Shown: positions 18,543-37,846 of the stretch, piece after piece
Position numbering within the stretch: the first letter of the stretch is position 1
How the letters are laid out: each line of letters begins with the position of its first letter
The notes under the pieces: model-generated
Database searches by the model: none
Seen by the model: only the letters and a program-made list of their open reading frames with translations
What the model was told of the DNA's origin: nothing
Position numbers and translations under genes: made by a program
Origin: an uncultured Phycisphaerales bacterium
Lineage (GTDB): Bacteria > Planctomycetota > Phycisphaerae > Tepidisphaerales > Tepidisphaeraceae
DNA: 64,000 bases
Assembly (NCBI GenBank): GCA_963755915.1
Contig: CAVWLP010000003.1
Span: 32,001 to 96,000 of the forward strand
Reading direction: 5' to 3'

Positions 18543-19763
18543 CTACGCGATCGACCCGAGCGGACGGGCGCTGATCGGCAAAGGTTTCAGCGGTTTGTTT
18601 TGAAGGATGAGCGGCACGTCGACCACTCGCCGGAAGAGCAAGCGGAAGGTTGAACCGACTCCGACCCGCGAATCGACGGTGAGAGTGCCTCCCAATAATT
18701 TAGCTGCCTGCGATGCAATGGCGAGGCCCAGTCCCACGCCAGATTCGCCGTGAACGTCTCCTCTTTTGAATGCCTCAAAAACCGTCTCCAAGAGCGCGGG
18801 CTCAATTCCAGGCCCCTCATCCAGTACCCACAGCACCGGACCATCTGACTGAGCGTCTTTTCCGAATCCAACGCGGATATCTCCACGGCTGATGTATTTT
18901 ACGGCGTTGCCCACGAGATTTTGAAGCACCAAGGTGAGCAACTCGCCATCTGATTCGACAACCGTGCCAGGGCGCATCTCGACAATGAGCCGCGCTCCTT
19001 TGGCGTCAGCCTCGCGCGAGAATTGCCCGAGTATTTTTGTCGCCAGTGCATGTAAATCGACGGGCGACAGCGTTATCGCTTTGCCGGATTTCCGGAGTCG
19101 TTCGTGGTCCAGTAGTCGACGCATGCCCATGACCGTGTCATGGATGCATTGCTGCGCGTGGTCAAGCGACTCTTCCGCTTCTGGGAAGCCGCCTGCCCGG
19201 TTCAAATCCAATCGGAGCGCTTGCAGTGTGAGCGTTACACTATTCAGGTTGTTGTTGAGGTCGTGAGAGAGGAACGAGAGAAACTTCAACTCCGTCTCGG
19301 CAGCAACGCGAAGTTGATTCTTCTGTTGGTCCACGAGGGCAATTACGGATCGCTGGAGCATCACGTCGATAGCGGCGTGGAGTGCCGCGGATTCCATGGC
19401 TTCCATCCGCCGGTTTAGCGCCTGTTCAATGTGCAATACAGTGATGGCCCTGAGCAGCCGATCCTCCTGCATGACCTCGACCACGTCGAGGTTCAGCCTG
19501 AAACGTGAAAGGCCCTGGGACGGTGCGCGGCTTACAAGCTCTCGAATCACGTCCGGGTCATCCGACGCAAGGGCTTGAGCGATCGCGAGCAATAGCTGGG
19601 GCGTAGAATTCTTTAATTCGTCGGATGTGAGATGCTGCATCTGCGGCATCGCCGCTCGCACAGCGGCGTCCCAATCCAGCGTTATCTGGTCCGCGCCAGT
19701 GCGCAGGATTCTTGCCAACTCGGGGAATGGGCGATGCGTGAGTTGTGCCAGCAGTGGATTCAT
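18543..19763 (-). CDS. Cytoplasmic sensor histidine kinase
   Basis: LSHDLNNNL H-box, NLVGNAVKY, DEGPGI, GVGLGL; no TM segment. Confidence 0.92.
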   Translation of the reverse strand: MNPLLAQLTHRPFPELARILRTGADQITLDWDAAVRAAMPQMQHLTSDELKNSTPQLLLAIAQALASDDPDVIRELVSRAPSQGLSRFRLNLDVVEVMQEDRLLRAITVLHIEQALNRRMEAMESAALHAAIDVMLQRSVIALVDQQKNQLRVAAETELKFLSFLSHDLNNNLNSVTLTLQALRLDLNRAGGFPEAEESLDHAQQCIHDTVMGMRRLLDHERLRKSGKAITLSPVDLHALATKILGQFSREADAKGARLIVEMRPGTVVESDGELLTLVLQNLVGNAVKYISRGDIRVGFGKDAQSDGPVLWVLDEGPGIEPALLETVFEAFKRGDVHGESGVGLGLAIASQAAKLLGGTLTVDSRVGVGSTFRLLFRRVVDVPLILQNKPLKPLPISARPLGSIA

Positions 19764-19999: not shown

Positions 20000-20705
20000 G
20001 TGACGATCGCAGCCCGCACGGGCAACAAAATTTTGGACCGCCTGCCAGAGCAGGATTTTCATCGAGTTTTCTCTCAATTGGAAAAAATTGCGCCCGATGT
20101 TGGCGAGGTCGTGGCCTATCCGGACAAAGAGCCAAGCGCGTTCACTTCCCAATCTCGGGCGTGCTTTCTTCGATGGTGGTCCTTGAAGACGGGTCGATGA
20201 TCGAGGCATCCACAATCGGAAACGAGGGCATGGACGGCCTCTATCTTATGGCTGATCCACTGGCCAACCCCTACCGCATCAACGTTCAGGTACAAGGCGA
20301 CATGCTCTGTATGTCGGCGTCAGCGTTCCGGCGTGCGTTGTCCGAGAGCCACGCGCTGACGCAACTTTTGCTCAGATACGCGATGGTGCTGATCCAGCGG
20401 GTGCTCAAAATGGAGCGTGCATTCAACACCACACGATCGAGGAACGAATGTGCAGATGGTTGCTTGAAACGGCTCACCGCAAGGGGGAAGATCATTTCGG
20501 CCTAACCCAGGAATTTCTGAGCGACATGCTCGGCGTCCGCCGACAGAGCGTAAATTTGACGGCGCGCATCCTCCAACAGGTCGGCCTGATCAAATATCAC
20601 CGGGGCGAGTTGACGATTCTTGACAGGGCCGGTTTGGAAGAATCTTCCTGCGAGTGTTTTCGTGTCACCAGCCAGATGTACGAACGCATGATGAGGCTTA
20701 CGTGA
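20000..20705 (+). CDS. Crp/Fnr family regulator (two frameshifts)
   Basis: IGNEGM cNMP-fold segment, RWLL, LTQEFLSDMLGVRRQSV HTH. Confidence 0.85.
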
Positions 20706-21188
20706 ATATCGCCTTGGGATGCGATCATCGCGGATACGCCGCCAAGCGGGAACTATTGCCGCAATTGCGAACTCTCGGCTATCAAGTAGAGGACTTTGGT
20801 TGCCCTACCTCTTCCGGCGTCGATTACGCGGACATCGCCTATCCCTTGGCGTTGGCGGTTGCCGCGGGGCAATGTGAGCTTGGAATTCTGATCGGGTGCA
20901 ACGGGATGGGCATGAACATGGTCGCGAATAAAGTCCCGGGCGTGCGCGCCGCGTCGGCAGACGATGAATTCGCTGCGCAGCGCCCGTGAAAAGTATCACT
21001 GCAATATCATCTGCTTTGGCGCGGATGTCGTCGGCGGGAATGAGATTCGAAAAATCGTGGAGGTGTTTTTGCAGGCAACGGTCTCCCCACGCCATGCACG
21101 ACAAGTTACAAAAATGAGGGAGATCGAGGAAATGGTGGCCAAAGTTTATGTCGCAAAGCACAATCAACCGTTCGTGTCGCTCGTTTGA
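20702..21188 (+). CDS. rpiB: Ribose-5-phosphate isomerase B family (frameshift)
   Basis: IALGCDHRG, DYAD, GCNGMGM..VANKVPGVRAA, RHARQV. Confidence 0.85.
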
Positions 21189-21195
21189 GACGACG

Positions 21196-21576
21196 ATGAA
21201 GACTCAAGGCGAAATCGAAAGCGCGATTTCGGAAGGCATCGGGCGTTTTGAACAGGAATACATGGGCCGTGGCCCCAAGGACGTTCACGCGCACTTGATC
21301 GGCGATCTGCTTGTCGTCCGGCTCAAGGGTGTTTTGACAGCAGCCGAGCAGCACCTCGTCAAGACGCTACCAAGTGAAAAGGGCCGGGATCTTCTCAAGC
21401 AGGTGCGCAGCCATTTGATCGAAATAGCGCGACCGCAGTTGGCGGCGATGATCGAGGGCATCGCGGGCGCCACGGTTGTGAGCCTGCACCATGACATCAG
21501 TACAGTGACCGGTGAAGAAGTAATTCTCTTCACCCTTTCAAGTTCGCCGCTTTGCCGCGAGGTGAAGAAGAGATAG
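21196..21576 (+). CDS. DUF2294 (MpsC-like) protein, copy 1
   Basis: EYMGRGPKDV...LKGVLTAAEQHL...SLHHDISTVTGEEVILFTL. Confidence 0.85.
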   Translation: MKTQGEIESAISEGIGRFEQEYMGRGPKDVHAHLIGDLLVVRLKGVLTAAEQHLVKTLPSEKGRDLLKQVRSHLIEIARPQLAAMIEGIAGATVVSLHHDISTVTGEEVILFTLSSSPLCREVKKR

Positions 21577-21683
21577 ACAATTCGATAAATCGACATTGTC
21601 CATTGCTATTAGCCGTTGGCACGCGTACCGTGTGACGTTGCGCAGGAAGTGTTCGTGCCTGTGCGTATTTGAAATATAAAGTC

Positions 21684-21789
21684 GTCGGACGACTAAATAG
21701 ACGGCATCCCGGTCTCCGGGCGGCCGGTTGCAGAGTAAGCCGACGTGGTTCCGCACCGTAAGGGTGTTGAACCACGTCGGTTCTTTTTT
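21684..21789 (+). ncRNA. Riboswitch/attenuator-like RNA, copy 1
   Basis: tcggacgactaa...gagtaagccgacg overlapping terminator ccgacgtggttc...gaaccacgtcgg-T tract. Confidence 0.75.
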
Positions 21790-21817
21790 GGCTTAAACGA
21801 AGTCGGAAACGTACGTA

Positions 21818-22225
21818 ATGCCTAATTCCACGCAAACAATGGCTGAAGAGATTGGCCAGGTCGCAGCAGCGTTTCAGCAGCAAAGAACCGGCATCGAGCC
21901 CAAATCCGTGCATGTCGTGCTTAGAGGAGACACCTTGGTGGTGACACTGCAGGGCGCACTGTCGCTGGCCGAGCAGGCTTTAGCGCGGAGTGCCGAAGGC
22001 GCGGCGGAAGTACAAGAGCTTCATCGTCAGTTGTTTCTCACGGCGTTCGACAGGCTCCGAGCGGAAATCAGGCGGATCACGGGGTTAAACGTGTGTGAAG
22101 CGGCCGAAGTCGAATCAGCGGCTGGGGCAGCAATTCAGGTTCTCGCCAGTGGAACGATGGTTCAAGTATTCCAACTTTCCGGAAAGTTGCCCCCCGGAGA
22201 TTTCAGCTCTGGGGACAAACTGTGA
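21818..22225 (+). CDS. DUF2294 (MpsC-like) protein, copy 2
   Basis: RTGIEPKSVHVVLRGDTLVVTLQGALSLAEQAL, paralogous to copy 1. Confidence 0.8.
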   Translation: MPNSTQTMAEEIGQVAAAFQQQRTGIEPKSVHVVLRGDTLVVTLQGALSLAEQALARSAEGAAEVQELHRQLFLTAFDRLRAEIRRITGLNVCEAAEVESAAGAAIQVLASGTMVQVFQLSGKLPPGDFSSGDKL

Positions 22226-22334
22226 AGCCACGGTCTCTGGAGTTGCGCTAAAAGTGCCAGTGATTGTCAATTTTAGTTTTACGGACCCAAGGCAATTTCG
22301 CTTCTGGGCCGAAGACTTTTTTAAGGAAATGGAC

Positions 22335-22874
22335 ATGTTAAGTAAGAACTCGGTTATCGCGTTATTCGATCAACACACTCAAGCCGAAAACGCAGTGAAG
22401 GAACTGCAGCAGGCGGGCTTCGACATGAAGTCGCTGTCTATCGTCGGAAAGGATTACCACACCGACGAGCACGTCGTCGGATATTACACGACCGCCGATC
22501 GCATGCAGTATTGGGGCAAAAATGGCGCATTCTGGGGCGGAATCTGGGGCCTGCTCTTTGGGTCAGCCCTCTTTGTCATCCCGGGTATCGGTCCGATTGT
22601 GGCAGCCGGGCCGGTGATCGCGTGGATCGTCGCCGCTCTCGAAGGTGCGGTCGTTGTCGGTGGCCTCAGCGCTCTTGGCGCCGGGCTCTACAGCATCGGC
22701 ATTCCGAAGAAAAGCATTTTGCAATACGAAACTTCGCTGAAGGCAGGGAAGTTTATGCTGCTGGTGCATGGAACCCCTGAGGAAATGAGTCGAGCTTCGA
22801 CGATCCTCAAAACCACCGGGGCATCGGAATGCCAAGAGCACATGGCGGATGCACCGGTTGCCGCGCTTGTTTGA
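22335..22874 (+). CDS. General stress protein/DUF1269-like membrane protein
   Basis: AENAVKELQQAGF..LSIVGKD, Gly-rich GAFWGGIWGLLFG..IPGIGP. Confidence 0.8.
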   Translation: MLSKNSVIALFDQHTQAENAVKELQQAGFDMKSLSIVGKDYHTDEHVVGYYTTADRMQYWGKNGAFWGGIWGLLFGSALFVIPGIGPIVAAGPVIAWIVAALEGAVVVGGLSALGAGLYSIGIPKKSILQYETSLKAGKFMLLVHGTPEEMSRASTILKTTGASECQEHMADAPVAALV

Positions 22875-22953
22875 TCGACGTGATTCTCACCCATGCACAT
22901 CCGGAAGCGATTCGGAGCACGATTGCCGGATCGCTTCCGCGACATTAGGAGCA

Positions 22954-23639
22954 ATGATGAATTCTCAGCTATCGGGCACACACCAGAAGGTTTACCAGCA
23001 TCTTTTCCAGCATCCGATGCCGCACAACCTCCAATGGCGAGAAGTCTGGTCAATGCTCGGTGCAATGAAGGATGCACAGGCGATCGGAGGAAGCCAAAGG
23101 CAATCTGAAAGTCGAGCGAAATGGTCAGGTCCTCACGCTGCACCGTCCGCGCGGCAAGGACTTGGCGGACAAACAGGAATTAATGAAGGTCCGCCATTTC
23201 CTGGAGCGCTCTGAATCGCCATTGCCAAAGCCCGAGCCGGGAGGCACCCACTTATTGGTTGTCATCGATCATCGCGAGGCGCGAATATACAGCGCGGAAA
23301 TACATGGATCGGTTCCGCAACGGATCAAGCCTTATGACCCTTTCGGCTTCGATCGAGATCTGCATTACAACCAGGACGATTCCAACGGCCAGCGAAAACC
23401 GGAGAAAAAGAGCTTCTACGAGGCAGTCGCCAAAACGCTGCGCGGGGCGAAGCAGATTTTAATGTTCGGCAGCGCCACCGGCGCCAGCAGCGCGATGGAA
23501 GCGCTGGTTGAGGAGTTGAAGCATAATCACCCCGATGTCGCAGAGCGGATCATCGGCACCTTTACTGTTGATGAGCATCATCTAACTGAAGATCAGTTGC
23601 TGGCTAAGGCGAGGCGCGCTTGTTTTTGCCTGCACATAA
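22954..23639 (+). CDS. Protein with HicA-like N-terminus and eRF1/host-attachment-like C-terminus (frameshifted)
   Basis: LFQHPMPHNLQWREV..LHRP; VVIDHREARIY, FYEAVAKTL, ILMFG, HLTEDQLLAKAR. Confidence 0.6.
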
Positions 23640-23677
23640 GTCTGCGATGTCTGCGGCGAATTGACATAAAGATAGTT

Positions 23678-26202
23678 ATGACCACATCAACGATGTCCAA
23701 ACCTCCTGCGTCGACGGCACGCCCCCACGAACTGGCCCGGTTGCTTCAGCAATACGGATGCGGGCCAATTCATTTCACCGGCACGGATGGATTTTACGAG
23801 AGGCACCTCGTCTTCGACACCGTGAAAGATTTGGCCACCACCAGCCCGCGTGAACACTTCGAGGCAGTCGCCCGCTCGGTTCGCGATGTTCTCTCGCAAC
23901 GCTGGGTGGCCACGGAGAAGACCTATGAGCGCGAGAATCCCAAGCGCCTTTATTATCTCTCCATGGAATTCCTCATCGGCCGTTCGCTTGGCAACAATGT
24001 CACAAATCTCCTTCTCGACCCTCTGGCAAACCAGTTCGCGGCGATGAAGAAGCTCGATTGGCTGGAACTGATCGAAAAGGAGCCCGATGCCGGCCTGGGC
24101 AACGGCGGACTGGGTCGGCTGGCCGCCTGCTTTCTGGATTCGTTGGCCACGATGCAGCTTCCGGCCATGGGTTACGGCCTGCGTTATGAGTACGGCATTT
24201 TCAGACAATCCATCAAGAACGGATGGCAGCAGGAAAGCCCGGACAATTGGCTGCGTCGCCCGGACCCATGGGAAGTCGCCCGCCTGGATCGAGCATGTCA
24301 GCGTGAACCTGAACTGTTCGTTCAAAATGACCGGACGGAAACTTGCACGCCATTCCGGGCACGCAGTCCAATCTGATCGGTATTCCCTATGACCGGCCGG
24401 TGGTCGGATACGGCGGCAAGACCATCAACACGCTCCGCCTTTGGGCCGCGGCAAGTTCCGGATTATTTTGATTTCCAGAGATTCAGCGGCGGCGATTTCG
24501 TCGGCGCGTTGGCGGAGATGCTGTCGGCGGAATCGCTGACCCGCGTCCTGTATCCCGACGATTCGACCAGCCGTGGGAAGAGCCTGCGCTTTGTGCAGGA
24601 GTATTTTCTCGTCGCCTGTTCGCTGGCCGATCTTGTCCGCCGCTTTCGCGAAACCAATTCCGATTGGACCCAGTTGCCCGAGCATGTCGCCATCCAGCTC
24701 AACGACACGCATCCCTCGCTGTCCGTCCCTGAGCTGATGCGAATTTTGCTCGATGATGCCCATCTGGGATGGGACCAAGCCTGGGACATCACGAAGCGGA
24801 CGCTGGCCTATACGAACCACACGCTTGTTGCCCGAAGCCTTGGAGAAATGGCCTGTCGAGTGGTTCGAGAAGCTGCTGCCGCGCCACCTGGAAATCATTT
24901 ACGAGATCAACCGGCGACTGCTCGATGATGTGCGTGCAGAAATTCCCAGGCGACGAGGGCCGCGTGGAGCGCATCAGCCTCGTCGAAGAGACGGACGGCC
25001 GCAACATCCGCATGGCGAACCTGGCCATCGTCGGCTCGCACAGCACCAACGGCGTGGCCGCGATTCACTCCCGCTTGCTCCGAACCACGACCGTGAAGGA
25101 TTTGGCCGACATGTTTCCGGAGCGGTTCAACAACAAGACCAACGGCGTGACGCCGCGCCGCTGGCTGCTGCTGTCGAATCCCATCGCTGGCCCGCGTGAT
25201 CACGCGAAGCGATCGGCGATGGCTGGATCACTGACCTCGATCAATTGCAGAAACTCAAGCCGCTGGCCGAATGACAAAGGCTTTCGCGACGCCTTTCTGA
25301 AGGCCAAACGCGAGGCCAAAGTGCGGTTTGCCGATTGGCTCAAGGCTAGCACCGGGCAAGCCGTCGATCCCGACACCATCTTCGATTGCCAGATCAAGCG
25401 CATCCACGAATACAAGCGGCAACTGCTCAACGCGCTGCGCATCGTCGTGCTTTACAACCGGCTGCGCGCAAATCCGGAACTCAATATGCCGCCGCGGACG
25501 TTTTTCTTCGCCGGCAAGGCCGCGCCGGCCTATCACCTGGCAAAGGTCATCATCAAGTTCATCAACAACCTGGCCGGCGTCATCGACGGCGACCCGGCTA
25601 TGCGAGGCAAGCTCAAGGTCGTTTTCCTGCCGGAATATTCTGTCACGCTGGCCGAGCGGCTGATTCCCGCCAGCGATGTCTCCAACCAGATTTCGACCGC
25701 GGGCTACGAAGCCAGCGGCACCAGCAACATGAAGTTCATGATGAACGGCGCTCTCACGCTCGGCACGCGCGATGGCGCGACCATCGAAATGGCTGAGGAA
25801 GCCGGCGAGGAAAACTTCTTCCTGTTCGGCCTGACGGCCAAGCAGGTGGCGGATAGCCGGAGCTGGTACAACCCACTACTGGCATTACGAAAACGAGCCG
25901 GAGACGCGTGCCGCGCTGGACCTGATTTTTTCCGACCATTTCAGCCGCGATGAACCCGGCATCTTCGAGCGAACTGCGCGAGACGCTCTTCTGACGGGCG
26001 GCGATCACTACATGCACCTGGCGGATCTGAAGTCCTACCTCGAGCGCGGACCAGCAGCTGGTCGAGTTGTATGCCGAGCAGGATGCCTGGGCGCGGAAGG
26101 CGATATTGAACGTGGCCGCGTCTGGGAAATTCTCCAGCGACCGAACCATCGCGCGAATATGCGTCGGAAATCTGGAACGTGAAACCATGCCCGGTGGCAT
26201 GA
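23678..26202 (+). CDS. glgP: Glycogen/starch phosphorylase (several frameshifts)
   Basis: [39 protein letters not shown]. Confidence 0.93.
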
Positions 26203-26218
26203 GAAGCAGACTGCAGCA

Positions 26219-27880
26219 ATGACGATTTCTCCACTCGCGGGTAAACCGGCTCCCAAGGAAATGCTGGTCGATCTGGCTCGCCTCGAACGCGAGTATTACG
26301 AGCGGCAGCCCGATTTAGCTGATCCCAACCAAATGGTCAGCTTCGGCACCAGCGGCCATCGCGGCTCGTCACTGCGCGGCACATTCACCGAGGCCCACAT
26401 CCTGGCCATCACCCAGGCGATTTGCGATTACCGGCGCAGGCCGGAAATCAGACGGCCCGCTTTACATGGGCAAGGACACGCACGCGCTGTCCGCGCCAGC
26501 CCAGCGCACGGCCTTGGAAGTTCTGGCGGCCAACGGTGTCGAGACCATCATCCAGCCAGACGACGGCGTAACGCCGACTCCGGTCATTTCGCGCGCAATC
26601 CTCGTCTACAACCGCAGCAGGAAACAACGTCTCGCCGACGGCATCGTCATCACGCCTTCGCACAATCCGCCGGAAGACGGCGGGTTCAAATACAACCCGA
26701 CCAATGGCGGTCCGGCCGACACCGACGTGACCGGCTGGATCCAGGACTCGCGCCAACGAATTGTTGCGCAGCAACAATGCCGGCGTGAAGCGCGTCCCCT
26801 ATGCCGCCGCCCTCAAGGCGGCGACGACGCACACCGAAGATTTCATTCTTCCCTATGTCAACGACCTGCGGAACGTCATCGACATGGAAGCGATCCGCGA
26901 GCGCGGGCCTGAAGTTGGGCGTCGATCCGCTGGGCGGCGACGGCGCTGCCTTATTGGGAGCCGATCAATTCGATTTACAATCTCGATCATCACGGTCGTC
27001 AACCCAAGACAATCGACCCGCCGTTTGCGTTCATGACGGTGGACCACGACGGGCAAATCCGCATGGACTGTTCCAGCCCGTACGCGATGGCCAGACTCGT
27101 CGGGCTCAAAGATAAATACCGCGTCGCCTTCGCCAACGACCCCGACTCCGATCGCCACGGTATCGTCACGCCGTCCGTCGGTTTGATGAATCCCAACCAT
27201 TATCTCGCCGTTGCGATTGGCTATTTGCTCATCCCATCGCCCGCACTGGCCGGGCAATGCGCCGGTCGGCAAGACGCTGGTCAGCAGCAGCATGATCGAC
27301 CGGGTGGTGAGCAAGCTGGGTCGACAGCTCTACGAAGTTCCCGTTGGCTTCAAATGGTTTTCGCCGGGACTTTTCGACGGCTCTCTGTTTCGGCGGCGAG
27401 GAAAGTGCCGGTGCGAGTTTCCTGCGACTGGACGGCGCGGTTTGGACGACGGACAAGGACGGCCCGATCATGGATTTGCTTGCGGCCGAAATCACCGCGC
27501 GCACCGGCAAAGACCCGGGCGAGCATTTTCGTGATCTGACAGCCGAGTTCGGCACGCCTTATTACACGCGCATCGATGCACCCGCGACGCCGCAGCAGAA
27601 GGCGAGTCTTGCCAAGCTGTCGCCCGAAGCGGTGAAAGAATCAAGTTTGGCGGGCGATCCTATCACCGCAAAGTTGACGCGCGCTCCTGGCAACAACGCC
27701 TCAATCGGTGGTTTGAAAGTTTCGACCGCGAGCGGCTGGTTTGCGGCCCGTCCGTCCGGCACCGAAAACATCTACAAGATTTACGCCGAAAGTTTCCGCG
27801 ACCAGAAGCATCTGAAATCCATTGTGGATGAAGCTCAGCAGATTGTAAGCGGCGCGATCGCCGGACCGGCGAAGGGTTGA
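26219..27880 (+). CDS. pgm: Phosphoglucomutase (several frameshifts)
   Basis: [36 protein letters not shown]. Confidence 0.93.
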
Positions 27881-27886
27881 TCGGAG

Positions 27887-29599
27887 TTGCTGATGCCGAA
27901 CCAACACCGTCAAATTCCTGTCCTGCCTTTCCGCCCGCGCGTCCATCCCATTGCGGACAAAGTTTTCCGTTCCTATCCCGTGGGGCGGCAGAGTTTCTCC
28001 CGCGCTTGCCAGGGGAATGTTCTCTCGCTCAGGATTACCACAACAAAGCCTCTGGCGCAGAACGTACGTGCTATCCTGGCGACAACATTGAATTCGGCTG
28101 ACGGTAGGTCATGGACAAAGGTGCCGTTCGAGCGCGAAAATGATCGCACCCTTTTATGCTGCATCACGCCTAACCACCCCGGTTTGCATTCCTTCCGTGC
28201 CGAGTTCTCGCTAGACGGCGGCACCAGGTGGCTCGGCGATACCGTGCCAGACGCCTGGATTTTGATCGATCCACCTCAGGTAGACGCGCTGTGCATTTAT
28301 ACCCTAATTCCCAATGTCTCCGGCACGCTCGCAAATTGGAAAGCTGACCTCAAGCGGATCGGCGATATGGGCTTCAACGCAATCCATCTATTGCCCATAA
28401 CCACGATGGACGATTCCGAAAGCCCCTATTCGGCGAAAGACCTCTTCAAAGTTGACCGCAGCTACTTGAGCACAGGATCACGGGACGATGACCTCTCGCA
28501 GTTAGAAGACTTCGTCGCAGAAGCCAAGCGACTTGGGATTCGGCTTGTCTTTGATTTGGTTCTCAATCATGTAGGAGTCCATAGCACGATGGCGCTGCAG
28601 GCACCGGACTGGATTGTTCCCGATCAGAATGAGCCGGACGGACTGAAGCGCGCGAGATTTTGGTGCGATCAGGGGTGGCGCAACTGGAATGATTTGGTCT
28701 TGATCAATTATGAGCATCCATCGGAAGCGGTCCGCGCAGAAATATGGTCGTACATGACCGATTATGCCTTGTTCTGGGCGAAATACGCCAACGACACCGG
28801 AGGCTTTGTACGTTTTGACAACCTCCACAGCAGCGATCCCGCCTTTGTTGCTGCGCTCACCACGTCATTGCATGCTGAATATCCAGAAGCTGGCATTCTT
28901 GCCGAGTATTTCACTGATGAAAGCACGCTGCTTCGGAATGGGCCAGAATGGGGATTGAATTTGAATCTGGCCACGCCCTGGAATTTCAAATTCGTCCCTC
29001 AACTTCGCGACTATCTGAAATACATGCACCGGGTTTCGGAGCACATCCGATACTTCATGCCGATCACCTCACACGACTGCGGCTCACCAGCACAAGAATT
29101 CGGCACCGCGGACTCGACGGTCCCTCGCTACGCAGTCGCGGCCCTGCTTGGCACTGGAGCCACCGGAGTTCCGCAGGGAGTGGAATTCGGCGAGAAAGAG
29201 CGGATCGACTTTATCGGCAGAAAGCCGAGAATGTCATATCCCGAAAGACCAAGGTTTGCCCAATTCATCCGTCAGGTCAATGAGATTGTCGCGAAATATC
29301 CGGCATTCCGACGGGGTGAAAACTGCTGGTTTGTGGATAACGGCCATTCCGCAGTCATAGCGGCATTTCGACGGGATTCAGACGCGCAGACATCAGGCTT
29401 TCTTGTCGTCTGCAATTTCGATACCGCTGGTCCGCAGCATATCACGATCGAACTTGGGCCCTTGTTGAAAAGAGACGGACCCTTCAAGTGCATCGAATTG
29501 TTGAGCGGCGACACTCGAATTGTGATGCATCCGCACATGGAGCTTGCACTTCCGGCATGTGGCGTCGAGGTGCTGAACTTTCCCGGAAAGGAAAATTGA
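27887..29599 (+). CDS. GH13 alpha-amylase-family glycoside hydrolase (debranching-like)
   Basis: GFNAIHLLP, SPYS, DLVLNH, VRFDNLHS, AEYF, TSHD. Confidence 0.85.
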   Translation: MLMPNQHRQIPVLPFRPRVHPIADKVFRSYPVGRQSFSRACQGNVLSLRITTTKPLAQNVRAILATTLNSADGRSWTKVPFERENDRTLLCCITPNHPGLHSFRAEFSLDGGTRWLGDTVPDAWILIDPPQVDALCIYTLIPNVSGTLANWKADLKRIGDMGFNAIHLLPITTMDDSESPYSAKDLFKVDRSYLSTGSRDDDLSQLEDFVAEAKRLGIRLVFDLVLNHVGVHSTMALQAPDWIVPDQNEPDGLKRARFWCDQGWRNWNDLVLINYEHPSEAVRAEIWSYMTDYALFWAKYANDTGGFVRFDNLHSSDPAFVAALTTSLHAEYPEAGILAEYFTDESTLLRNGPEWGLNLNLATPWNFKFVPQLRDYLKYMHRVSEHIRYFMPITSHDCGSPAQEFGTADSTVPRYAVAALLGTGATGVPQGVEFGEKERIDFIGRKPRMSYPERPRFAQFIRQVNEIVAKYPAFRRGENCWFVDNGHSAVIAAFRRDSDAQTSGFLVVCNFDTAGPQHITIELGPLLKRDGPFKCIELLSGDTRIVMHPHMELALPACGVEVLNFPGKEN

Positions 29600-29699
29600 A
29601 ACCTAGAAATATTATTTTGCTGGTTCACGGTTGGGATCGCCTATACTATGACATGCAAGTTGGCTGATCCCTCTGCTCCGTGCAGAACAGCGAAAATCT

Positions 29700-29804
29700 T
29701 CGGATGACTAAATAAAGAGTAATCTGGCCGAACCGCCAGAGGACTCGTTAACGAGTAAGCCGACGTAATTGAACACTCCCGTGTTCAGTTGTGTCGGCTT
29801 TTTT
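29700..29804 (+). ncRNA. Riboswitch/attenuator-like RNA, copy 2
   Basis: tcggatgactaa...gagtaagccgacg...tgtcggctttttt. Confidence 0.75.
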
Positions 29805-29843
29805 GTTTGCGCAACAGGCGTTTAACGCCTGGAGAACCTCAAA

Positions 29844-30776
29844 ATGAGAACTCCCAGTCCTTTCGCGGCACTGATCTTTGTCGTAATCCTCGCCATTGGG
29901 GGAGGTTTGGCGTTCGCCGCCTACAGCGCCGCAGCGCCCGAAAAGAGCATATGTACCGGGATCATTGCATTTGTGATTGCTGTCGTCGCCGCTCGCTCAA
30001 TCAGGGTCGCCGATCAGTGGGATAAAGCCGTGATTCTGCGGTTGGGCCAGTTCCACTCACTAAAAGGTCCGGGGCTTTTCTTCATAATACCTATTGTCGA
30101 TGCGATTCCCTACTGGATCGATACCCGCGTAATCACAACCGGCTTCAAAGCTGAAAAGACGCTGACTAAGGACACCGTCCCGGTGGACGTCGACGCAGTG
30201 CTGTTTTGGAAAGTCATCGACCCCAAAAAGTCGGCGCTGGGCGTAGCGGATTATCGGAGCGCCATAAGCTGGGCATCGCAGACCGCGCTCCGCGATGTGA
30301 TTGGAAAAACGATGCTTTCAGACATGCTGGAAGGCCGCGACAAAATCAGCGCGGTGCTGCAGAAGATCATTGACGAACGCACCGAACCATGGGGCATCAA
30401 TGTTATTTCTGTAGAGGTGAAGGACGTCTTGATTCCCCAAGCCCTTGAGAATGCCATGTCCATGCAGGCCCAGGCCGAACGAGAGCGCCAAGCCCGTGTG
30501 ATTTTGGGAGATTCGGAACGGCAGGTAGCGGAGAAATTCGCTGAAGCGTCCAAGAGCTACCAGCATAATCCGGTCGCATTTCATCTCCGGGCAATGAACA
30601 TGCTTTACGAGGGGTTGAAGCAGAATTCCACCATCGTGATCGTTCCCAGCACTGCCGTCGAAAGCATGCAGTTAGGCGGACTTGCTGGATTGACCGCCCT
30701 GACTATGGGAATCGGTCAGGACGGCGGTGGCAATGGAAAGCCGGTGCCACCCAATGAACCTGCATTGATCCGATAG
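29844..30776 (+). CDS. SPFH/slipin (stomatin-like) protein
   Basis: ILRLG..KGPGLFFIIP, TKDTVPVDVDAV, QAQAERERQAR. Confidence 0.92.
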   Translation: MRTPSPFAALIFVVILAIGGGLAFAAYSAAAPEKSICTGIIAFVIAVVAARSIRVADQWDKAVILRLGQFHSLKGPGLFFIIPIVDAIPYWIDTRVITTGFKAEKTLTKDTVPVDVDAVLFWKVIDPKKSALGVADYRSAISWASQTALRDVIGKTMLSDMLEGRDKISAVLQKIIDERTEPWGINVISVEVKDVLIPQALENAMSMQAQAERERQARVILGDSERQVAEKFAEASKSYQHNPVAFHLRAMNMLYEGLKQNSTIVIVPSTAVESMQLGGLAGLTALTMGIGQDGGGNGKPVPPNEPALIR

Positions 30777-30862
30777 CGGTCGTTGGATGGACCCGGCGGA
30801 CCTCGTCCGTCACGGACTCGCTTGAGGCAACGTGACGCAAACTCTCGTGAAAGGAACTCATT

Positions 30863-31024
30863 ATGTCCATTCTATTCATCATAATTATCATCCTCGTGAT
30901 CATGAGCTTCGGCGGTGGGTACTATAGGCCGGCTTATCGAACGCATGGGATTTCACTTGGAACGATCCTCTTAATCGTACTGGTCTTATGGCTTTTCGGC
31001 GTGTTTGGCAGCCGGCCGTTTTAG
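30863..31024 (+). CDS. Small two-helix membrane protein (DUF3309-like), 53 aa
   Basis: Translated by hand: MSILFIIIIILVIMSFGGGYY...LGTILLIVLVLWLFG; AAGGAA RBS; below ORF-track cutoff. Confidence 0.7.
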   Translation: MSILFIIIIILVIMSFGGGYYRPAYRTHGISLGTILLIVLVLWLFGVFGSRPF

Positions 31025-31143
31025 GTGTTGTTAGGCCCCCCACGGAATTCTTCTGTTGGAGCCGACAGGAAAGACAATGCCCAGCATGCACGCAAGGAGA
31101 TACCGTCATTCACACGCTAAATAAAATTTCGCTCGATAAAATC

Positions 31144-33542
31144 GTGCCTCAGGAAAATGCCCCAGGCGCCCCGGGATTCCGCCACGTTGGACTTGCAGCG
31201 CAAAAACGGGCGTGGGCACTGCCCTCAGCAACAAGAGCCTTGTCTGGTTCACGCTGAGCCATGGAATTTTCAACGAAATATTTTATCCCCGTATCGATCA
31301 AGCGTGCGTCCGCGACATGGGATTGATAGTCACGGACGGAGCGGATTTCTTCTCCGAGGAAAAGAGCGACACCAAGTCTGAGGTTCATTGGCTGGCTGAG
31401 GGCGTCCCAGCATTCCGACTGGTCAATACGTGCCGCGCCGGCCGATACCGCATCGAAAAGCAAGTCGTGACTGATCCGCAGCGAAACACAGTTCTGCAAC
31501 GCATCCAGTTCACCGCAATGCAAGACCATCTTTCCGATTATCGGTTGCATGTGCTGCTGGCGCCGCATCTGGGAAACCACGGCGATGGCAACAATGCCTG
31601 GGTGGATGAGTTTGAAGGCTTGCCGCTTCTGTTTGCCCAGCGTGACGGATATGCGTTGGCACTGGCCTGTTCCGCGCCATTACTGAAGCGATCCGTCGGT
31701 TATGTCGGTTCTTCCGACGGCTGGCAGGATCTAATGGCGCACAAGCAGATGACCTGGGAATACACGCAGGCTCGGAACGGGAACGTGGCTTTGACTGCCG
31801 AAATCGATCTTCTTCACCCCAAGGGACATTGCGAACTGGCCTTGGGCTTTGGCAAGAACTCTCAAGAAGCGGCGGAGAACGCAATCGCCAGTCTTCGCGA
31901 AGGTTTTGACAACATCAAGCACGAATACATTGCCGGATGGCAGTTTTGGAAGAAGTCGGTGATGTCGACAAAAAAGGACCGTTTCCATGCGGGCGATCTT
32001 TTCCCGATCAGCCTCGCCGTCTTGCGAACCCATGAATCCAAGACGGCCTCGGGCGGTCTCATCGCCAGCCTCGCCATCCCATGGGGATCAAGCAAGGGGG
32101 ACGGCGATCAGGGCGGTTATCACCTTGTCTGGGCACGCGACATGGTGGAAACGGCGGGCGCGTTGCTCGCTAGCGGCGCACATGATGACACGCGCCGGGC
32201 ACTCACGTTTTTGCAGTCAACCCAGCAGCCGGACGGCCACTGGCCTCAAAATATGTGGGTGGATGGCACACCTTACTGGAACGGAATTCAACTCGATGAG
32301 ACTGCGCTGCCTGTTTTGCTGGTGGACCTGGCCCACCGTGAGAAGGCGATATCTGACGCCGACATGCAATCGTTTTGGCCGATGGTGCAACGTGCCGCCG
32401 GCTATCTGGCGCGCAATGGCCCCGTGAGTCCGCAGGATCGCTGGGAGGAAGATCCGGGGTATTCGCCTTTTTCCGTCGCCGCGGAAATAGCCGCCATCCT
32501 CGTCGCTGCGGATATGGCCGCTTTGAACAATGAACCCGCCATGGCAACGTATCTCCGCGAAATCGCGGACGTTTGGCACACCTCCATCGATCGCTGGATG
32601 TACGCCTCGGCAACGGATTGGTGCAAAAAGTTCGATGTGGAAGGCTATTACCTGAGAATCGCCTCCGCGAACCCGGGCGAAGGGGAACGTTTCCAGAATT
32701 TTGTCCGCGTCAAGAATGTCACTGCCGCCGAAGACACCCGTATGGCCAAGCATCTGGTAAGTCCCGACGCCCTGGCACTGGTGCGTTTTGGTTTGCGCGC
32801 CGCGGATGACCCGCGCATTCTCGGCACGGTAAAAGTCATCGATTGTTTACTTAAAGTGGAGACGCCCACCGGTCCCAGTTGGCACCGATATAACGATGAC
32901 GGGTATGGCGAACATAAAGACGGCGCGCCCTTTGACGGAACAGGCATCGGCCGCGCGTGGCCGCTACTCACGGGTGAGCGTGCTCACTATGAACTCTTGG
33001 CAAATCGGGCTGAGTTTGCAAAGGGACTGTTGGACACGATGGAATCGTTTGCCAACGAAGGAAGCCTTATCTCAGAACAAATCTGGGACTCGCCCGACCT
33101 GCCGGAACATGATTTGTTTCTCGGCAAGCCCTCCGGTTCCGCCATGCCGTTGGTTTGGGCTCATGCAGAGTACATCAAGCTCCGGCGCTCCTTGCGGGAC
33201 GGACACGTTTTCGACCTGCCACCGCAAACCGTACAACGTTATTTAATCGACAAAACTATATCCCCGCGCATGGTGTGGAGGTTCAACCACAAGCTCCGCT
33301 CCATGCCCGCGAGAAAATCACTCCGTGTCGAAACTCTGGCGCCCGTGGTGATTCATTGGAGTGTGGATGACTGGAAAACGCATGAGGACACTAAGTCGCG
33401 CGATGTCGGCCTGGGCCTTCACGTTGCGGATCTAGCAACGCAATCACTCCCGGACGGAAAAGAAATCAAATTCACTTTCTACTGGCCCGCCGCGGGTCAC
33501 TGGGAAGGAACCGACTTTATCGTTCGCATCGACTCGCTATGA
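31144..33542 (+). CDS. GH15 glucan 1,4-alpha-glucosidase/glucoamylase (N-terminal frameshift)
   Basis: APGAPG start, ASLAIPWG, GYHLVWARD, QDRWEE, SEQIW, PLVWAHAEY. Confidence 0.9.
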
Positions 33543-33569
33543 GGCGACGGGATTGTAGCTGTTAAAGCG

Positions 33570-34955
33570 GTGAAGCTCATGCTCTTGAAAACCGATACCA
33601 AGGCGAACGCCAACCGCTTTGTCTACCTTGCCACTGCCGTGGCGGCTCTAGGCGGTATGCTCTTCGGTTATGACGTCGGTGTCATTTCCGGAGCGATCCT
33701 TTTCGTCAAGAAAGATTTCTCCCTTTCTCCCGGCCTCGAAGAAGTTGTCATCAGCTCTGTCTTGCTCGGATCGTTAATCGGCGCGATTGCCGGAGGGGTG
33801 CTGGCCGACCGCTGGGGCCGCCGAAGACTGCTGATCATTACTGCGAGCGTCTTTGGGATCGGTGCCATTGGAGCGGCTCTGTCGCCGGACACCGGGTGGC
33901 TGATCGTTGCCAGGATTCTTGCGGGCGCTGCCATCGGGGTCGCTTCTTTTGTCGCCCCGCTTTACATATCAGAAATCGCGCCAGTGGCTATCCGCGGAAA
34001 GCTCGTTTCGATTAACCAAGTCGCCTTGACCAGCGGCATCGTCGTCTCCTATCTGATTGATTACGCGTTTGCAGGTGTCGGGGCTTGGCGGTGGATGTTC
34101 GCGATGGCCGTCGTTCCGGCCGCAGCATTTGGAGTCGGATTGCTCTTCATTCCCGAGAGCCCCCGCTGGCTTGTCGGACGCGGACTGGCGGACAAGGCTC
34201 GCGCCGTACTCGCACGAATCCGCACACCTGATCAGGTCGAGGCGGAATTCGCCCAGATTCAGCAGAGCGCTCAGCAACAAAAAGAGAACTGGGCAGAATT
34301 GCTCAGTCCCGCCTTACGACCGGCAATGATTGTCGGTGTCGGGCTGGCCATCGCCCAACAAATCACCGGCATTAATACGGTCATTTATTATGCACCGACG
34401 ATTTTCAAGTTTGCCGGCTTGTCTTCCGCGTCGGTGGCCATTCTCGCCAGCGTCGGTGTCGGGGTCGTTAACGTCATCCTGACCGTCGTAGCAATGCAAC
34501 TGATCGATCGAGTCGGCCGCCGTCCGCTTTTATTGATCAGCCTCGCCGGAATGTCGCTAAGTCTAATCGTACTCGGACTGGCGTTTAAGCTTCCCCAATT
34601 GTCCGCCAGTCTAGGATGGATCGCAGTGACCAGCCTGATGCTGTACGTCGGTTCGTTCGCCGTCGGCCTGGGCCCAGTGTTTTGGCTAGTCCTTTCCGAG
34701 ATTTATCCGCTCCGCATCCGGGGCCGGGCCATGAGCGTCGGCACGGTCGCTAATTGGATCGCCAATTTAATCGTTGCGCTGTCGTTTTTGACACTTACGC
34801 ATCTGATGGGTAAAGCCGCTACGTTCTGGCTGTACGGAATCGTGAGTATTGGAGCGTGGCTCTTCGCATTTTTTCTGGTGCCGGAAACGAAGGGTAAAAC
34901 CCTTGAACAGATCGAAGCACATTGGCGGGCAGGAAAACACCCAAGGGAACTCTGA
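33570..34955 (+). CDS. Sugar porter family MFS transporter
   Basis: LFGYD, DRWGRR, PESPRW, QQITGIN, PETKG. Confidence 0.95.
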   Translation: MKLMLLKTDTKANANRFVYLATAVAALGGMLFGYDVGVISGAILFVKKDFSLSPGLEEVVISSVLLGSLIGAIAGGVLADRWGRRRLLIITASVFGIGAIGAALSPDTGWLIVARILAGAAIGVASFVAPLYISEIAPVAIRGKLVSINQVALTSGIVVSYLIDYAFAGVGAWRWMFAMAVVPAAAFGVGLLFIPESPRWLVGRGLADKARAVLARIRTPDQVEAEFAQIQQSAQQQKENWAELLSPALRPAMIVGVGLAIAQQITGINTVIYYAPTIFKFAGLSSASVAILASVGVGVVNVILTVVAMQLIDRVGRRPLLLISLAGMSLSLIVLGLAFKLPQLSASLGWIAVTSLMLYVGSFAVGLGPVFWLVLSEIYPLRIRGRAMSVGTVANWIANLIVALSFLTLTHLMGKAATFWLYGIVSIGAWLFAFFLVPETKGKTLEQIEAHWRAGKHPREL

Positions 34956-35033
34956 GGGTATTATTCGAGAACAAAGACCACCGTTCCAGCGGAGAAGCAA
35001 AACGAGTAGAATTCTGGCAGACGATTGAAAACC

Positions 35034-35143
35034 TCGGATGACTAACTGAAGGGTAGATCGGCCAACGGCCGGCAGACCCGTCAAAGAGTAAGCCGACGCG
35101 ATTGAATCTCAAAATCTCGGGATTCGGTGGCGTCGGCTTTTTT
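35034..35143 (+). ncRNA. Riboswitch/attenuator-like RNA, copy 3
   Basis: tcggatgactaa...gagtaagccgacg...cgtcggctttttt. Confidence 0.75.
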
Positions 35144-35158
35144 GTTGATCGGAAAATA

Positions 35159-35381
35159 ATGACCGGTACTAAGCACTCAGTTGAAAACGAAGGAGCCAAG
35201 CCGCGGGATCACGTTCACCCGCTCCACCATTTTTGGAAACATGCGCACCGGGACTGGCGCAGTTTGGATCGCAGTCGTGTTGATGCTCGTTGCGATCCTT
35301 GCGTATGTGATGACGGACAGCCTCTCCCTCAGACCCGGCAAACGGGCTGTTCAGCCGACCCCCGAGGCAATTGCACCTTAG
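35159..35381 (+). CDS. Small His-rich single-TM protein (frameshift)
   Basis: HVHPLHHFWKHAHRDWR joins VWIAVVLMLVAILAYVMT across one indel. Confidence 0.55.
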
Positions 35382-35413
35382 GACGTCTCGTTATCTAACA
35401 ATAAGGAAAGATT

Positions 35414-37841
35414 ATGTCTACTGATCTACTGGAACCCGCCGTTGAAGCTCTCAACAACGACGCCTCGTCATCCAAAGCGGGAGGTCCACTTACATCCGAA
35501 GAACTCCGCAAGATGAATTCCTATTCGCACCGCCAATTACCTCTCGGTTGGACAGATTTATCTGTATGACAATCCGCTGCTGAAAGAGCCGCTTAAACTA
35601 TCTCATGTCAAGCCACTCGTGGTTGGGCACTGGGGCACGACGCCGGGCCAAAACTTCATTTATGTGCATTTGAATCGCGTCATTAAAAAAGCTGATCTGG
35701 ATATGTTCTACGTCGCCGGTCCCGGTCACGGCGGACCGGCGATTGTCGGCAACGTTTACCTTGAAGGCACGTGGAGCGAAATCTATCCAAATGTCACCCA
35801 GGACGAAGCGGGACTGAAAAAGCTGTTCAAGCAATTCTCGTTTCCAGGCGGGATTTCGAGCCACGTCGCCCCGACGACGCCGGGTTCGATTCACGAAGGA
35901 GGCGAACTTGGATATTCGCTGAGTCACTCGTTCGGAGCTGCGTTCGATAATCCTGAGCTGATCGTCGCGTGTGTCGTCGGCGACGGGGAAGCGGAGACGG
36001 GGCCGCTGGCCACCGCTTGGCAATCGAACAAGTTCCTCGATCCAATCTCCGACGGGGCCGTGCTGCCAATCCTGCATCTCAACGGTTTCAAGATCAGCAA
36101 TCCGACGTTGCTCTCTCGAATCGAACACGATGAACTGGAGCAGTTCTTTCGCGGTTGCGGCTGGACACCCTATTTTGTGGAAGGGGACGACCCGGCAACG
36201 ATGCACCAACTCATGGCCACGGCGCTGGACAAAGCGATCGGGGACATCAAGAAGATTCAGACCACCGCCCGAGCGACGAAAGACCCGAGCCGCCCGCGCT
36301 GGCCCATGATCGTTTTGCGATCCCCCAAAGGCTGGACCGGACCCAAAGTTGTCGACGGCCTTCCCTGCGAAGGCACCTTCCGCGCGCATCAGGTTCCGCT
36401 GCTCGTGGATGCCGATCATCCCCAGCACGTCGCCCAGCTTGAAAGCTGGATGAAGAGTTACAAGGCCGAGGAACTCTTCGATGCCAACGGTCGCCTGAAT
36501 GCAGAGTTGGCTGAGCTTGCCCCAACGGGCGATCGTCGAATGGGTGCCAATCCCCACGCAAATGGCGGCATTCTTTTGCACGATCTCAAGATGCCCGACT
36601 TCCGCGATCACGCGGTAAATGTTCCTTCACCGGGCGCGGTTAACGGTCAGGACACGATGGTGCTTGGCCAATTTCTGCGCGATGTCGTCAAGCTCAATGA
36701 AAAGCCCCGCAACTTCCGCGTTTTCGGGCCCGATGAAACACTATCCAATCTGCTCGGGGCTGTATTCGAAGTGACCAATCGTCAATGGGACGCCCGTGAG
36801 GTAAAGAACGATGAATTCCTCGCCCCTGGGGGCGGCGTTCTCGATTCGATGCTCAGTGAGCATCAGTGCGAAGGGTGGTTGGAAGGATATCTACTGACCG
36901 GCCGGCACGGGCTTTTCAACAGTTATGAAGCCTTCATTCGCATTGTCGACAGCATGTTCAGCCAGCATGCCAAATGGCTAAAGGTCACATCCGAATTGCC
37001 GTGGCGCCGAAAGATCGCATCGCTGAACTATCTGCTCGCATCACACGTGTGGCAGCAGGATCACAATGGCTTCACGCACCAGGATCCCGGTTTTCTCGAT
37101 CATGTCATCAATAAAAAAGCGAGCATCGTGCGGGTCTATCTGCCGCCCGATGCCAACTGCCTTCTATCGGTTTTCGATCACTGTTTGCGCAGCCGCAATT
37201 ATGTGAATGTCGTGGTCGCGGGGAAACACGCGCTCCCACAATGGCTTAGTATGGACGCGGCCGCCGTGCATTGCACGGAAGGCATCGGGATCTGGCAATG
37301 GGCCAGCAACGATCAGAATGCCGAGCCGGATGTCGTCATGGCCTGCTGCGGTGACACGCCCACGCTGGAGATTCTCGCTGCGACTTCCATCCTTCGCCAG
37401 CACCTGCCTGATCTGAAAATCAGAGTCATCAATGTCGTCGACCTGATGAAACTGCAATCTGCCAGCGAGCATCCGCATGGCCTGAACGAGACGGATTACG
37501 ATTCACTGTTCACGAAGGATAAGCACATCGTTTTCGGATTCCATGGATATCCATGGCTGGTTCACCGCCTCACCTACCGGCGGACCAATCGCAATCTGCA
37601 CGTCCGCGGCTACAAAGAAGAAGGCACAATCACCACCGCCTTCGATATCCGAGTGCAGAACGAATTAGATCGCTTTCATCTTGTGCAGGACGTGCTGGAC
37701 CGCGTTCCGAATCTGGGGGCCAAAGGTTCATATCTCAAACAAATGATGCAGGACAAACTCATCGAGCACAAACAGTACATCGATCATCACGGCCAGGATC
37801 TGCCTGAAATCCGCAACTGGAAATGGAGCGTCTCCAAGTGA
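35414..37841 (+). CDS. xfp: Phosphoketolase, copy 1 (N-terminal frameshift near 35525)
   Basis: [36 protein letters not shown]. Confidence 0.95.
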
Positions 37842-37846
37842 ATTCA

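Follow-up and report, generated by a model that had tools for sequence, protein, structure and literature searches.

A leader RNA conserved in Planctomycetota, a candidate riboswitch or antiterminator in front of stress and glycogen-catabolism genes

Almost nothing is known about gene regulation and the general stress response in the Planctomycetota. Here we describe a leader RNA which is found in three copies in a stretch of 64,000 nucleotides (nt) of an uncultured Phycisphaerales bacterium (contig CAVWLP010000003.1, positions 32,001 to 96,000, + strand; this whole stretch is termed the window, and positions refer to it unless a contig is named). The leader is a genuine cis-regulatory RNA of the phylum, conserved, present in multiple copies and absent from Rfam, and represents either an orphan riboswitch candidate or an antiterminator leader. 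With a probability of about one half, we read it as a cis-acting ON switch of transcription with a small molecule or ion as its effector, and hence as a new riboswitch class. This one RNA element fronts many stress-type genes (HSP20, CsbD, BON, YflT, SPFH, KaiC and sigma factors) together with glycogen-burning genes. Should the element prove to be a riboswitch, the compound it binds would be a candidate for the master dormancy signal of the phylum, in a class that Rfam does not contain.

The three leader copies are located on the + strand at 21681-21789, 29696-29804 and 35030-35143, each consisting of a hairpin and a terminator. Two sequence blocks mark them: TCGGAYGACTAA occurs exactly three times in the window, against 0.37 expected occurrences, and GAGTAAGCCGACG is present at exactly the same three places. 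The hairpin is a rod of about 65 nt, in which P1a (UCGG/CCGA), a 3x3 internal loop (ANG/AAG, reading AYG/AAG in the window copies), P1b (ACU/AGU), a further loop, P1c, P2, another loop and P3 follow one another; P1c has 3 base pairs (bp), P2 4 bp and P3 4-6 bp in the window copies. By their folds, the aptamer-like hairpins occupy 21681-21748 in copy 1 (P1a pairing 21685-21688 with 21741-21744), 29696-29768 in copy 2 and 35030-35101 in copy 3. A covariance model built from seven leader copies of the source genome (model R1) scores them at 71.6, 89.2 and 91.0 bits, and a second model (R2) gives 76.3 bits for copy 1. A preliminary description of this DNA, made from the letters alone, had already placed three leaders here, with TCGG/CCGA and ACT/AGT pairing around an AYG/AAG loop and an inner hairpin that changes its sequence while keeping its pairing (cccgg/ccggg, ctggc/gccag, cggcc/ggccg). 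The leaders and the inner hairpin are present as described, the outer pairings occur in all three copies, and two more helices, between the outer helix and the inner hairpin, covary too.

The preliminary description had also proposed a covariance model and a covariation check, and covariation supports the inner helices P1c, P2 and P3. Two alignments, both fitted to the model, were used. In 85 distinct copies from relatives of the source genome, 96.9% of the cells are paired and both-side changes occur in 12 of 18 pairs, with slid controls at 23-49% and none of 500 shuffles attaining the covariation score. In 111 distinct copies from named records, 96.4% of the cells are paired with both-side changes in nine of 18 pairs, and the covariation score of this alignment was reached by none of 500 shuffles. 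The covariation is carried by P1c, P2 and P3, for example by the last P2 pair (U-A vs C-G, 43 vs 40). The leader thus shows the conserved structure, supported by covariation, that is expected of a riboswitch aptamer, with P1a and P1b being near-invariant and not proven by covariation. The many G-U pairs in P1c and the score gap between the sense strand (70-95 bits) and the antisense strand (about 30 bits) fix the strand of the RNA.

Approximately 35 positions, mostly in the loops, are near-invariant (CGGA.GACU, GCA, GG, GUU and GAGUAAGCCGACG) and are kept across three classes of the phylum. The GGA is invariant, and 67% of the copies read GGAUGA. A semi-conserved AAGUCG (48-64% per position in 194 motif-anchored upstream regions) immediately precedes the motif on its 5' side. 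It can pair with AYGACU to form a small 5' hairpin with CGG in its loop, which competes with P1 and in copy 1 is part of the minimum-energy fold. Besides AAGUCG, the 194 regions show no element in a fixed register, and a conserved promoter was therefore rejected. A sigma-54-like TGGCAG...TTGAA, present in two paralogous copies, is wrongly spaced, and transcription from it would begin within P1. A leader peptide reading AUG ACU AAA UAA in copy 2 was likewise dismissed, its AUG not being conserved (middle base U in 67%, C in 23% and A in 8% of the copies).

Behind each window copy lies a long GC-rich hairpin with a U tract, i.e., an intrinsic terminator, and its 5' arm GCCGACG is at the same time the 3' strand of P1a. 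The terminators extend over 21739-21789 (U tract 21782-21789), 29759-29804 and 35092-35143, all on the + strand. Among the 85 distinct copies of relatives, 81 carry a run of at least four U downstream and four do not; in 79 of these 81 the terminator folds at -16.9 to -45.6 kcal/mol with GCCGACG as its 5' arm, the other two having been scored only to an internal U run. When complete, the window leaders adopt the terminator fold, with -58.1, -48.6 and -52.5 kcal/mol for copies 1 to 3 (z-scores -5.7 to -7.2). If P1 is enforced in them, the cost is 8.1, 10.8 and 9.0 kcal/mol, and only the inner hairpin remains, apart from the U tract; P1 forms spontaneously only in RNA truncated before the 3' arm of the terminator. 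Because its enforcement costs 8-11 kcal/mol, the default state would be OFF. The expression platform and the aptamer helix are mutually exclusive in the window copies and in 79 of the 85 copies of relatives. The same strand sharing and the same exclusion of one fold by the other had been put forward before, and hold in nearly all copies; the ON-type transcriptional switch proposed with them is supported by covariation, terminator overlap and calculated folding energies.

The following course of events may be envisaged. During transcription of the leader, the rod hairpin of about 65 nt would form, and CCGACG, the 3' strand of P1a, at the same time begins the 5' arm of a highly stable terminator hairpin at the U tract. 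Unaided, the terminator would win, and in many copies the 5' strand of P1 could additionally be sequestered in the 5' hairpin (AGUCGU/AYGACU); transcription would then stop 15-40 nt ahead of the start codon (OFF). An effector bound at the conserved internal loops would hold P1 closed, so that only the inner remnant of the terminator could form. This remnant hairpin would be located 7-13 nt from the U tract, and because of that distance the polymerase would read through (ON). We infer that the switch acts in the ON direction and responds to a small molecule: as its effector, we consider an intracellular small molecule or ion which reports stress or energy limitation the most likely. The switch would thereby turn on general-stress proteins and the route from glycogen to the pentose-phosphate and phosphoketolase pathway in the Planctomycetota.

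The same energetics would also suit a leader that senses a physical or global variable directly and has no ligand pocket, such as temperature, ionic strength or water activity, or the speed of the polymerase. The gap of 8-11 kcal/mol would put the outcome under kinetic control, P1 is marginal with 4-6 bp plus 3 bp, and the regulon resembles a response to desiccation, osmotic or heat stress (HSP20, CsbD, BON, YflT). Such a sensor nevertheless appears improbable to us, since the loop nucleotides are near-invariant across classes, which suggests a specific binding site, and the tuning of stability needs none.

The genes behind the leaders form a recurring set. From the end of the U tract to the ATG, 28 nt are found in copy 1 (MpsC type B, 21818), 39 nt in copy 2 (SPFH, 29844) and 15 nt in copy 3 (an open reading frame, ORF, of 79 amino acids (aa), 35159), which agrees with the 15-40 nt of the preliminary description. 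All window genes listed in this paragraph are encoded on the + strand. Copy 1 is followed by the MpsC (DUF2294) type B gene (21818-22225; PF10057, E 3.7e-16), a gene for a YflT-domain stress protein (22095-22874; PF11181; its start is uncertain and the ORF overlaps the end of the MpsC-B gene), a glycogen phosphorylase in three ORFs (23072-25953; PF00343, profile positions 6-88, 142-279 and 300-613), phosphoglucomutase-like fragments (26219-27539; weak matches to PGM_PMM_I and PGM_PMM_II) and an alpha-amylase- or glycogen-debranching-like enzyme (27887-29599; PF14701, PF00128). Behind copy 2 follow a slipin-like SPFH/Band 7 protein as the first gene (29844-30776; PF01145), a GH15 glucoamylase or glucodextranase (31212-33542; PF09137, PF00723) and a sugar transporter of the major facilitator superfamily (33570-34955; PF00083). 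Copy 3 precedes the small 79-aa ORF, which has no family (35159-35398; frame uncertain), phosphoketolase (xfp, 35619-37841), class I fructose-bisphosphate aldolase (37823-38893; PF00274) and a P-type cation ATPase in three ORFs (38912-41428), with Cation_ATPase_N, E1-E2_ATPase and Hydrolase on consecutive ORFs.

Downstream genes were tallied with a simple caller, which takes the longest same-strand ORF with a start 30-330 nt past the motif. Among relatives (85 ORFs), the first genes include MpsC (8), Band_7 (5) and XFP, KaiC, DUF2934 and Transgly_assoc (3 each). For the named loci, 112 motif hits, six of them without an ORF of at least 40 aa, yielded 103 ORFs once 3 duplicate ORFs had been dropped; these comprise MpsC (16), CsrA and sigma-70 (4 each), P-type ATPase, Ice_binding and HSP20 (3 each), and KaiC, CsbD, BON, DUF3309 and YflT (2 each). 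Later operon genes, for which the first 150 of 383 ORFs were considered, include MpsC, DUF3185 and PAS (5 each), P-type ATPase and YceI (4 each), XFP, phosphorylase, glucoamylase and 6PGDH (3 each), and G6PD and RpiB (2 each). The leader thus stands, in the same orientation, ahead of gene families that recur in distant lineages, and the tabulation that had been suggested earlier shows families such as MpsC-B recurring behind the motif. Judged by their family assignments, the genes form a general-stress or dormancy set together with glycogen catabolism via the pentose-phosphate and phosphoketolase route.

This arrangement also bears on a further explanation, in which the hairpin and terminator of about 110 nt are an independent, trans-acting small RNA gene whose place before other genes is incidental. 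Each unit has a strong terminator of its own, and a short stable RNA would probably be the main product of the OFF state. Furthermore, one contig from an RNA library (a metatranscriptome) covers 34902-35096 with 3 differences in 195 nt; such contigs reveal neither ends, strand nor level, and nothing follows from stretches that they leave uncovered. An independent small RNA is nonetheless highly improbable, as the end of each window unit is followed after 15-39 nt by a start codon in the same orientation and the same families lie directly behind the motif in distant lineages (e.g., MpsC-B, 16 of the 103 named-locus ORFs). Nearly every copy uses the P1 strand for the 5' arm of its terminator, which is a hallmark of attenuators, and copies are situated between genes of one operon, such as copy 2, which starts about 100 nt past the end of the amylase-like gene. 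In the same metatranscriptome libraries, xfp-like sequence is abundant, and a contig from a relative (26 differences) covers 34991-35248, with aptamer, terminator and start of the ORF.

The leader is not confined to the window. A search of the source genome with model R1 returned 11 sense copies, three in the window, seven on a contig labelled C2 and one elsewhere on the contig labelled C3. Hence, of the earlier statement that a three-copy RNA coordinates this island, the three copies and the switch-like leader in the window stand, but the frame was too narrow: as a regulon element, the leader exists in many copies and is distributed phylum-wide. In a paralogous cluster at C2:2128490-2151524 (loci L009, L013, L012 and L015), four copies occur in the order slipin, then small ORF with xfp, which is the gene order behind window copies 2 and 3. 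A divergent motif on C3 (1359599-1359668, +, L018; 42.9 bits with R1, 52.1 with R2), equipped with a terminator, precedes an acyl-ACP desaturase-type gene (PF03405) and is divergent from a third MpsC-A gene of the source genome.

Among 101 genomes, i.e., the source genome (G000) and 100 relatives of which one (G014) is unpublished, the motif occurs in 30, with up to 17 matches in one genome; it is present in 12 of 12 genomes of the genus, in 23 of 60 of the family and in representatives of five further families within the class. A pattern scan with one genome per GTDB species found at least 118 stretches with the motif, 80 of which are listed as loci, all from metagenome-assembled genomes with unverified labels. 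Of these 80 listed loci, 79 carry labels of Planctomycetota type (Tepidisphaeraceae, Phycisphaerales, Pirellulales/Pirellulaceae, Planctomycetaceae, Gemmataceae, Isosphaeraceae, Thermoguttaceae and Candidatus Kuenenia) and one is labelled 'delta proteobacterium'; the top-scoring named copies have the Tepidisphaeraceae label. In a sample of 150 genomes spread evenly over the phylum, of which about 32 candidates per genome were scored under strict filters, the motif was detected in 4 (R1) or 5 (R2). It is therefore phylum-wide but patchy. Named records with the motif range over Phycisphaerae, Planctomycetia and Candidatus Kuenenia. Lineages from soil and peat hold up to 17 copies per genome, and copies are also seen in records labelled Candidatus Kuenenia. 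A blastn comparison of copy 3 with the plasmids of PLSDB gave no match.

In three named loci, motif copies stand in tandem about 115-130 nt apart and next to an MpsC-A gene (L127, 6234-6428, -; L145, 3563-3748, +; L130, 6310-6512, -; the records are labelled Candidatus Kuenenia stuttgartiensis and Planctomycetaceae). A small ligand is favoured by these tandems, by the size and conservation of the loops, by the 11 copies in the source genome, and by five motif-positive genomes in which no MpsC gene was found (G012, G023, G048 and G081 among the relatives and G155 in the phylum sample, 81-99% complete).

The genes that accompany the leader open the way to another possible reading, which retains the competition between P1 and terminator and replaces the small ligand by a protein of the companion module, namely a CsrA-like paralog, MpsC-A, or both; we entertain it tentatively. 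It comes in two versions. According to the first, the CsrA-like protein would bind the loop GGA of the 5' hairpin and favour termination, and would itself be titrated by a stress-sensing DUF2294 A/B pair; because the CsrA-like gene itself lies behind a motif copy, this would amount to negative feedback. According to the second, MpsC-A itself would clamp the rod and block termination. If the leader is protein-controlled in either way, this would be the first function for DUF2294/MpsC, whose Pfam name misleads. In Staphylococcus aureus, a deletion of mpsC was without phenotype and mpsC is outside MpsAB function, as reported in PMC6689103; therefore, the name MpsC is uninformative on function. 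A literature search on DUF2294 returned nothing related.

Several lines of evidence are in line with a protein effector. MpsC (PF10057) is encoded in 28 of the 101 genomes, and 26 have both MpsC and motif (27, 29 with motif and 25 with both among 100 when the unpublished G014 is left aside), which bears out the link to a DUF2294 pair noted at the outset. The co-occurrence is strong but not obligatory, since the motif is found alone in four genomes (the four relatives named above) and MpsC alone in two (G068, G070); in the phylum sample, MpsC is present in 12 of 150 genomes, the motif in 5 and both in 4, with G155 having the motif only. The synteny is fixed: a unit of motif, MpsC-B and often the CsrA-like gene has beside it an MpsC type A gene, which has no motif of its own in front and mostly diverges from a motif or, like the window gene, lies directly upstream of one. 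MpsC lies within 8 kb of the motif in 34 of the 80 listed named loci. MpsC-A of the window (21196-21576, +; PF10057, E 1.3e-37), which adjoins copy 1 upstream, has 126 aa from its conserved MKTQGEIE start and is extremely conserved, sharing 67-76% identity with type A of 23 named loci across classes and having invariant residues at R25, R42, R64, K68, R71, R79 and H98-H99-D100. MpsC type B (about 139 aa) is the commonest first gene behind the motif, and the window copy is 45-57% identical to type B of 17 named loci.

The CsrA-like paralog is similarly tied to the leader. An ORF of this kind occurs in 12 of the 80 listed named loci and in 6 of 55 loci of relatives, in 17 of these 18 co-directional with and downstream of the motif, often behind MpsC-B or a motif. 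At an identity of at least 57%, it is confined to motif-positive relatives (15 of 30), motif-negative ones having only hits of 39-46%. It keeps MLVLSRR and the Arg in the C-terminal NRWEV, which we take to correspond to the RNA-binding residues of CsrA. In the source genome it is encoded at C2:1451469-1451642, behind the motif at C2:1452041, in the module C2:1451469-1454597 (L014, L008) with the order CsrA-like gene, motif (-), MpsC-A, motif (+), 100-aa ORF and MpsC-B. A further motif copy of this module is found at C2:1454526 (-), and the CsrA-like protein there has an insertion. Finally, the semi-conserved AAGUCG makes the alternative 5' hairpin possible, in which the invariant GGA would be exposed.

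Other observations speak against a protein effector. Apart from the five motif-positive genomes without a detected MpsC gene, eight genomes with type A-like MpsC genes (G227, G112, G105, G233, G130, G205, G068 and G070) have no motif within about 3 kb of these genes even with filters off. A weak variant of the motif (18-19 bits), in which AUC/GAU replaces ACU/AGU, was seen between the two MpsC genes of one genome (G169). MpsC-A is not basic (isoelectric point 5.7-7.9), and its model has no clear RNA-binding relative. The AlphaFold2 model, with a mean confidence (pLDDT) of 89.3, shows the order helix, strand, strand, helix, helix, strand, strand. Compared by sequence with the PDB, MpsC-A gave only a stray hit (E 0.0022); Foldseek searches with the model returned nothing at E<=0.001, with YslB, TRAPP Bet3 and H-NOX as weak top rows, a wide structure comparison (VIA) reached a best Z of 6.7, which is within the noise of the tool, and the ESM Atlas held no usable hit. 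For a complex of MpsC-A and MpsC-B, the score was 0.18 against a mark of 0.32, which counts neither for nor against binding. Moreover, only one GGA is conserved, the second candidate being variable, and about 35 conserved nt over 65 nt exceed what known protein-bound antiterminator hairpins need. Most motif loci have neither MpsC nor a CsrA-like gene nearby, which shows only that such a factor would act in trans.

The riboswitch reading, too, has points against it. The tight linkage to the extremely conserved MpsC-A, to MpsC-B and to the CsrA-family paralog supplies possible protein effectors, and the sole invariant GGA lies in the loop of the alternative 5' hairpin, where it presumably resembles a CsrA site. 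All expression platforms seen are terminators, none being translational, which equally fits protein-dependent antitermination. The switch-relevant helices P1a and P1b are nearly invariant, their covariation being limited to one exchange of G-C for A-U in P1b and some wobbles, and the named-record alignment was gathered with a pattern that fixes the P1a and P1b blocks. The tallies of downstream genes, in turn, come from crude ORF calling restricted to one strand and one distance range.

A broader proposal, rather unlikely as a whole, is that the leader, MpsC-A, MpsC-B and the CsrA-like protein constitute one self-contained stress-control module, patchy in its distribution and possibly horizontally transferred, in which the CsrA-family protein would decide on termination at this dedicated structured leader and the DUF2294 pair would act as its sensor and antagonist. 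If true, it would give DUF2294 its first function, show proteins of the CsrA type working in a new mode and amount to an RNA-based counterpart of a general stress response for the phylum.

A scan with Rfam 15, which the preliminary description had called for, matched no family to the leaders. Across the whole window, the gathering threshold gave no match at the leaders and only Intron_gpII at 54234-54312; at E<=10, the region 21650-21830 gave 12 rows at chance level (E 0.23-9.2), each at least 32 bits under the gathering score, and at E<=1 the region 29650-35200 gave none. It had further been suggested that the leader may correspond to the orphan Rhodopirellula-1 motif. Weinberg et al., 2010 (Genome Biol 11:R31; PMC2864571) enter this motif in their Table 1 with 'Proteobacteria, Planctomycetes' as taxa, '?' for RNA, 'y' for cis-regulatory and '?' for switch, and without an Rfam accession. 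Compared by this table listing alone, the taxa fit the leader loosely (79 and one of the 80 listed loci, some of them labelled Pirellulaceae); the '?' for RNA status denotes weak evidence, and the accessible text of PMC2864571 gives neither ligand nor mechanism. A literature search on planctomycete riboswitch candidates and terminator motifs found the leader undescribed by title or abstract, apart from this possible bare listing of 2010.

Among known systems, ON riboswitches with rod-like aptamers and terminators include those for Li+ (nhaA-I), Na+ (DUF1646) and xanthine (NMT1), and THF-II (folE). Like these, the leader has a single irregular hairpin with conserved internal loops, places the 3' strand of P1 in a terminator and occurs in several copies per genome, with cation ATPases and stress proteins encoded among its associated genes. 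Unlike them, it has a different consensus and gene set and no match in Rfam 15.

Protein-dependent antitermination is represented by ribonucleic antiterminator (RAT) hairpins with BglG, SacY or LicT, by ANTAR targets, and by HutP and PyrR. A RAT hairpin has about 30 nt and an ANTAR target two hexaloop hairpins, overlapping a terminator. The leader shares with these systems that the 3' part of the antiterminator overlaps the terminator, that a multi-gene regulon is involved and that a candidate regulator lies beside a target. In contrast to RAT and ANTAR targets, it has roughly double their length and far stronger conservation, and the candidate regulators encoded beside it, putative RNA binders, are DUF2294 and a CsrA paralog rather than CAT/PRD or ANTAR proteins. 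The anatomy of a RAT or ANTAR target was not found, the leader being one rod of about 65 nt with three internal loops. Leaders regulated by CsrA contain two or more GGA sites, at least one of them in a hairpin loop. In the leader, the invariant GGA may be exposed in the loop of the short alternative 5' hairpin, and a CsrA-family gene belongs to the module, but only one GGA is conserved, and both of its G pair within P1a when the aptamer fold forms. To our knowledge, control by CsrA via a dedicated structured antiterminator of 65 nt is not a known mode.

Some features of the window concern the assembly and the surroundings of the leaders. Consecutive split ORFs are seen for glycogen phosphorylase (3), the phosphoglucomutase-like gene and the P-type ATPase (3), and xfp lacks its N-terminus, XFP_N matching from profile position 46. 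Compared with the window, a contig assembled from a DNA run shows a 1-nt deletion at 35261, within the small ORF behind copy 3, and a GG insertion at 35525, near which an assembly indel probably removed the xfp N-terminus. The split genes are probably assembly indel errors and not pseudogenes, and the low completeness figure of the source genome (81%) may have the same cause. The Intron_gpII match (RF00029, - strand, 53.3 bits, E 1.2e-07) corresponds to domain V/VI of a group II intron. Just upstream of the MpsC module, a histidine kinase is encoded at 18543-19763 (-), with a weak, below-cutoff match to the stressosome-type N-terminal domain of RsbRD, and between kinase and module lies an RpiB fragment (20654-20989).

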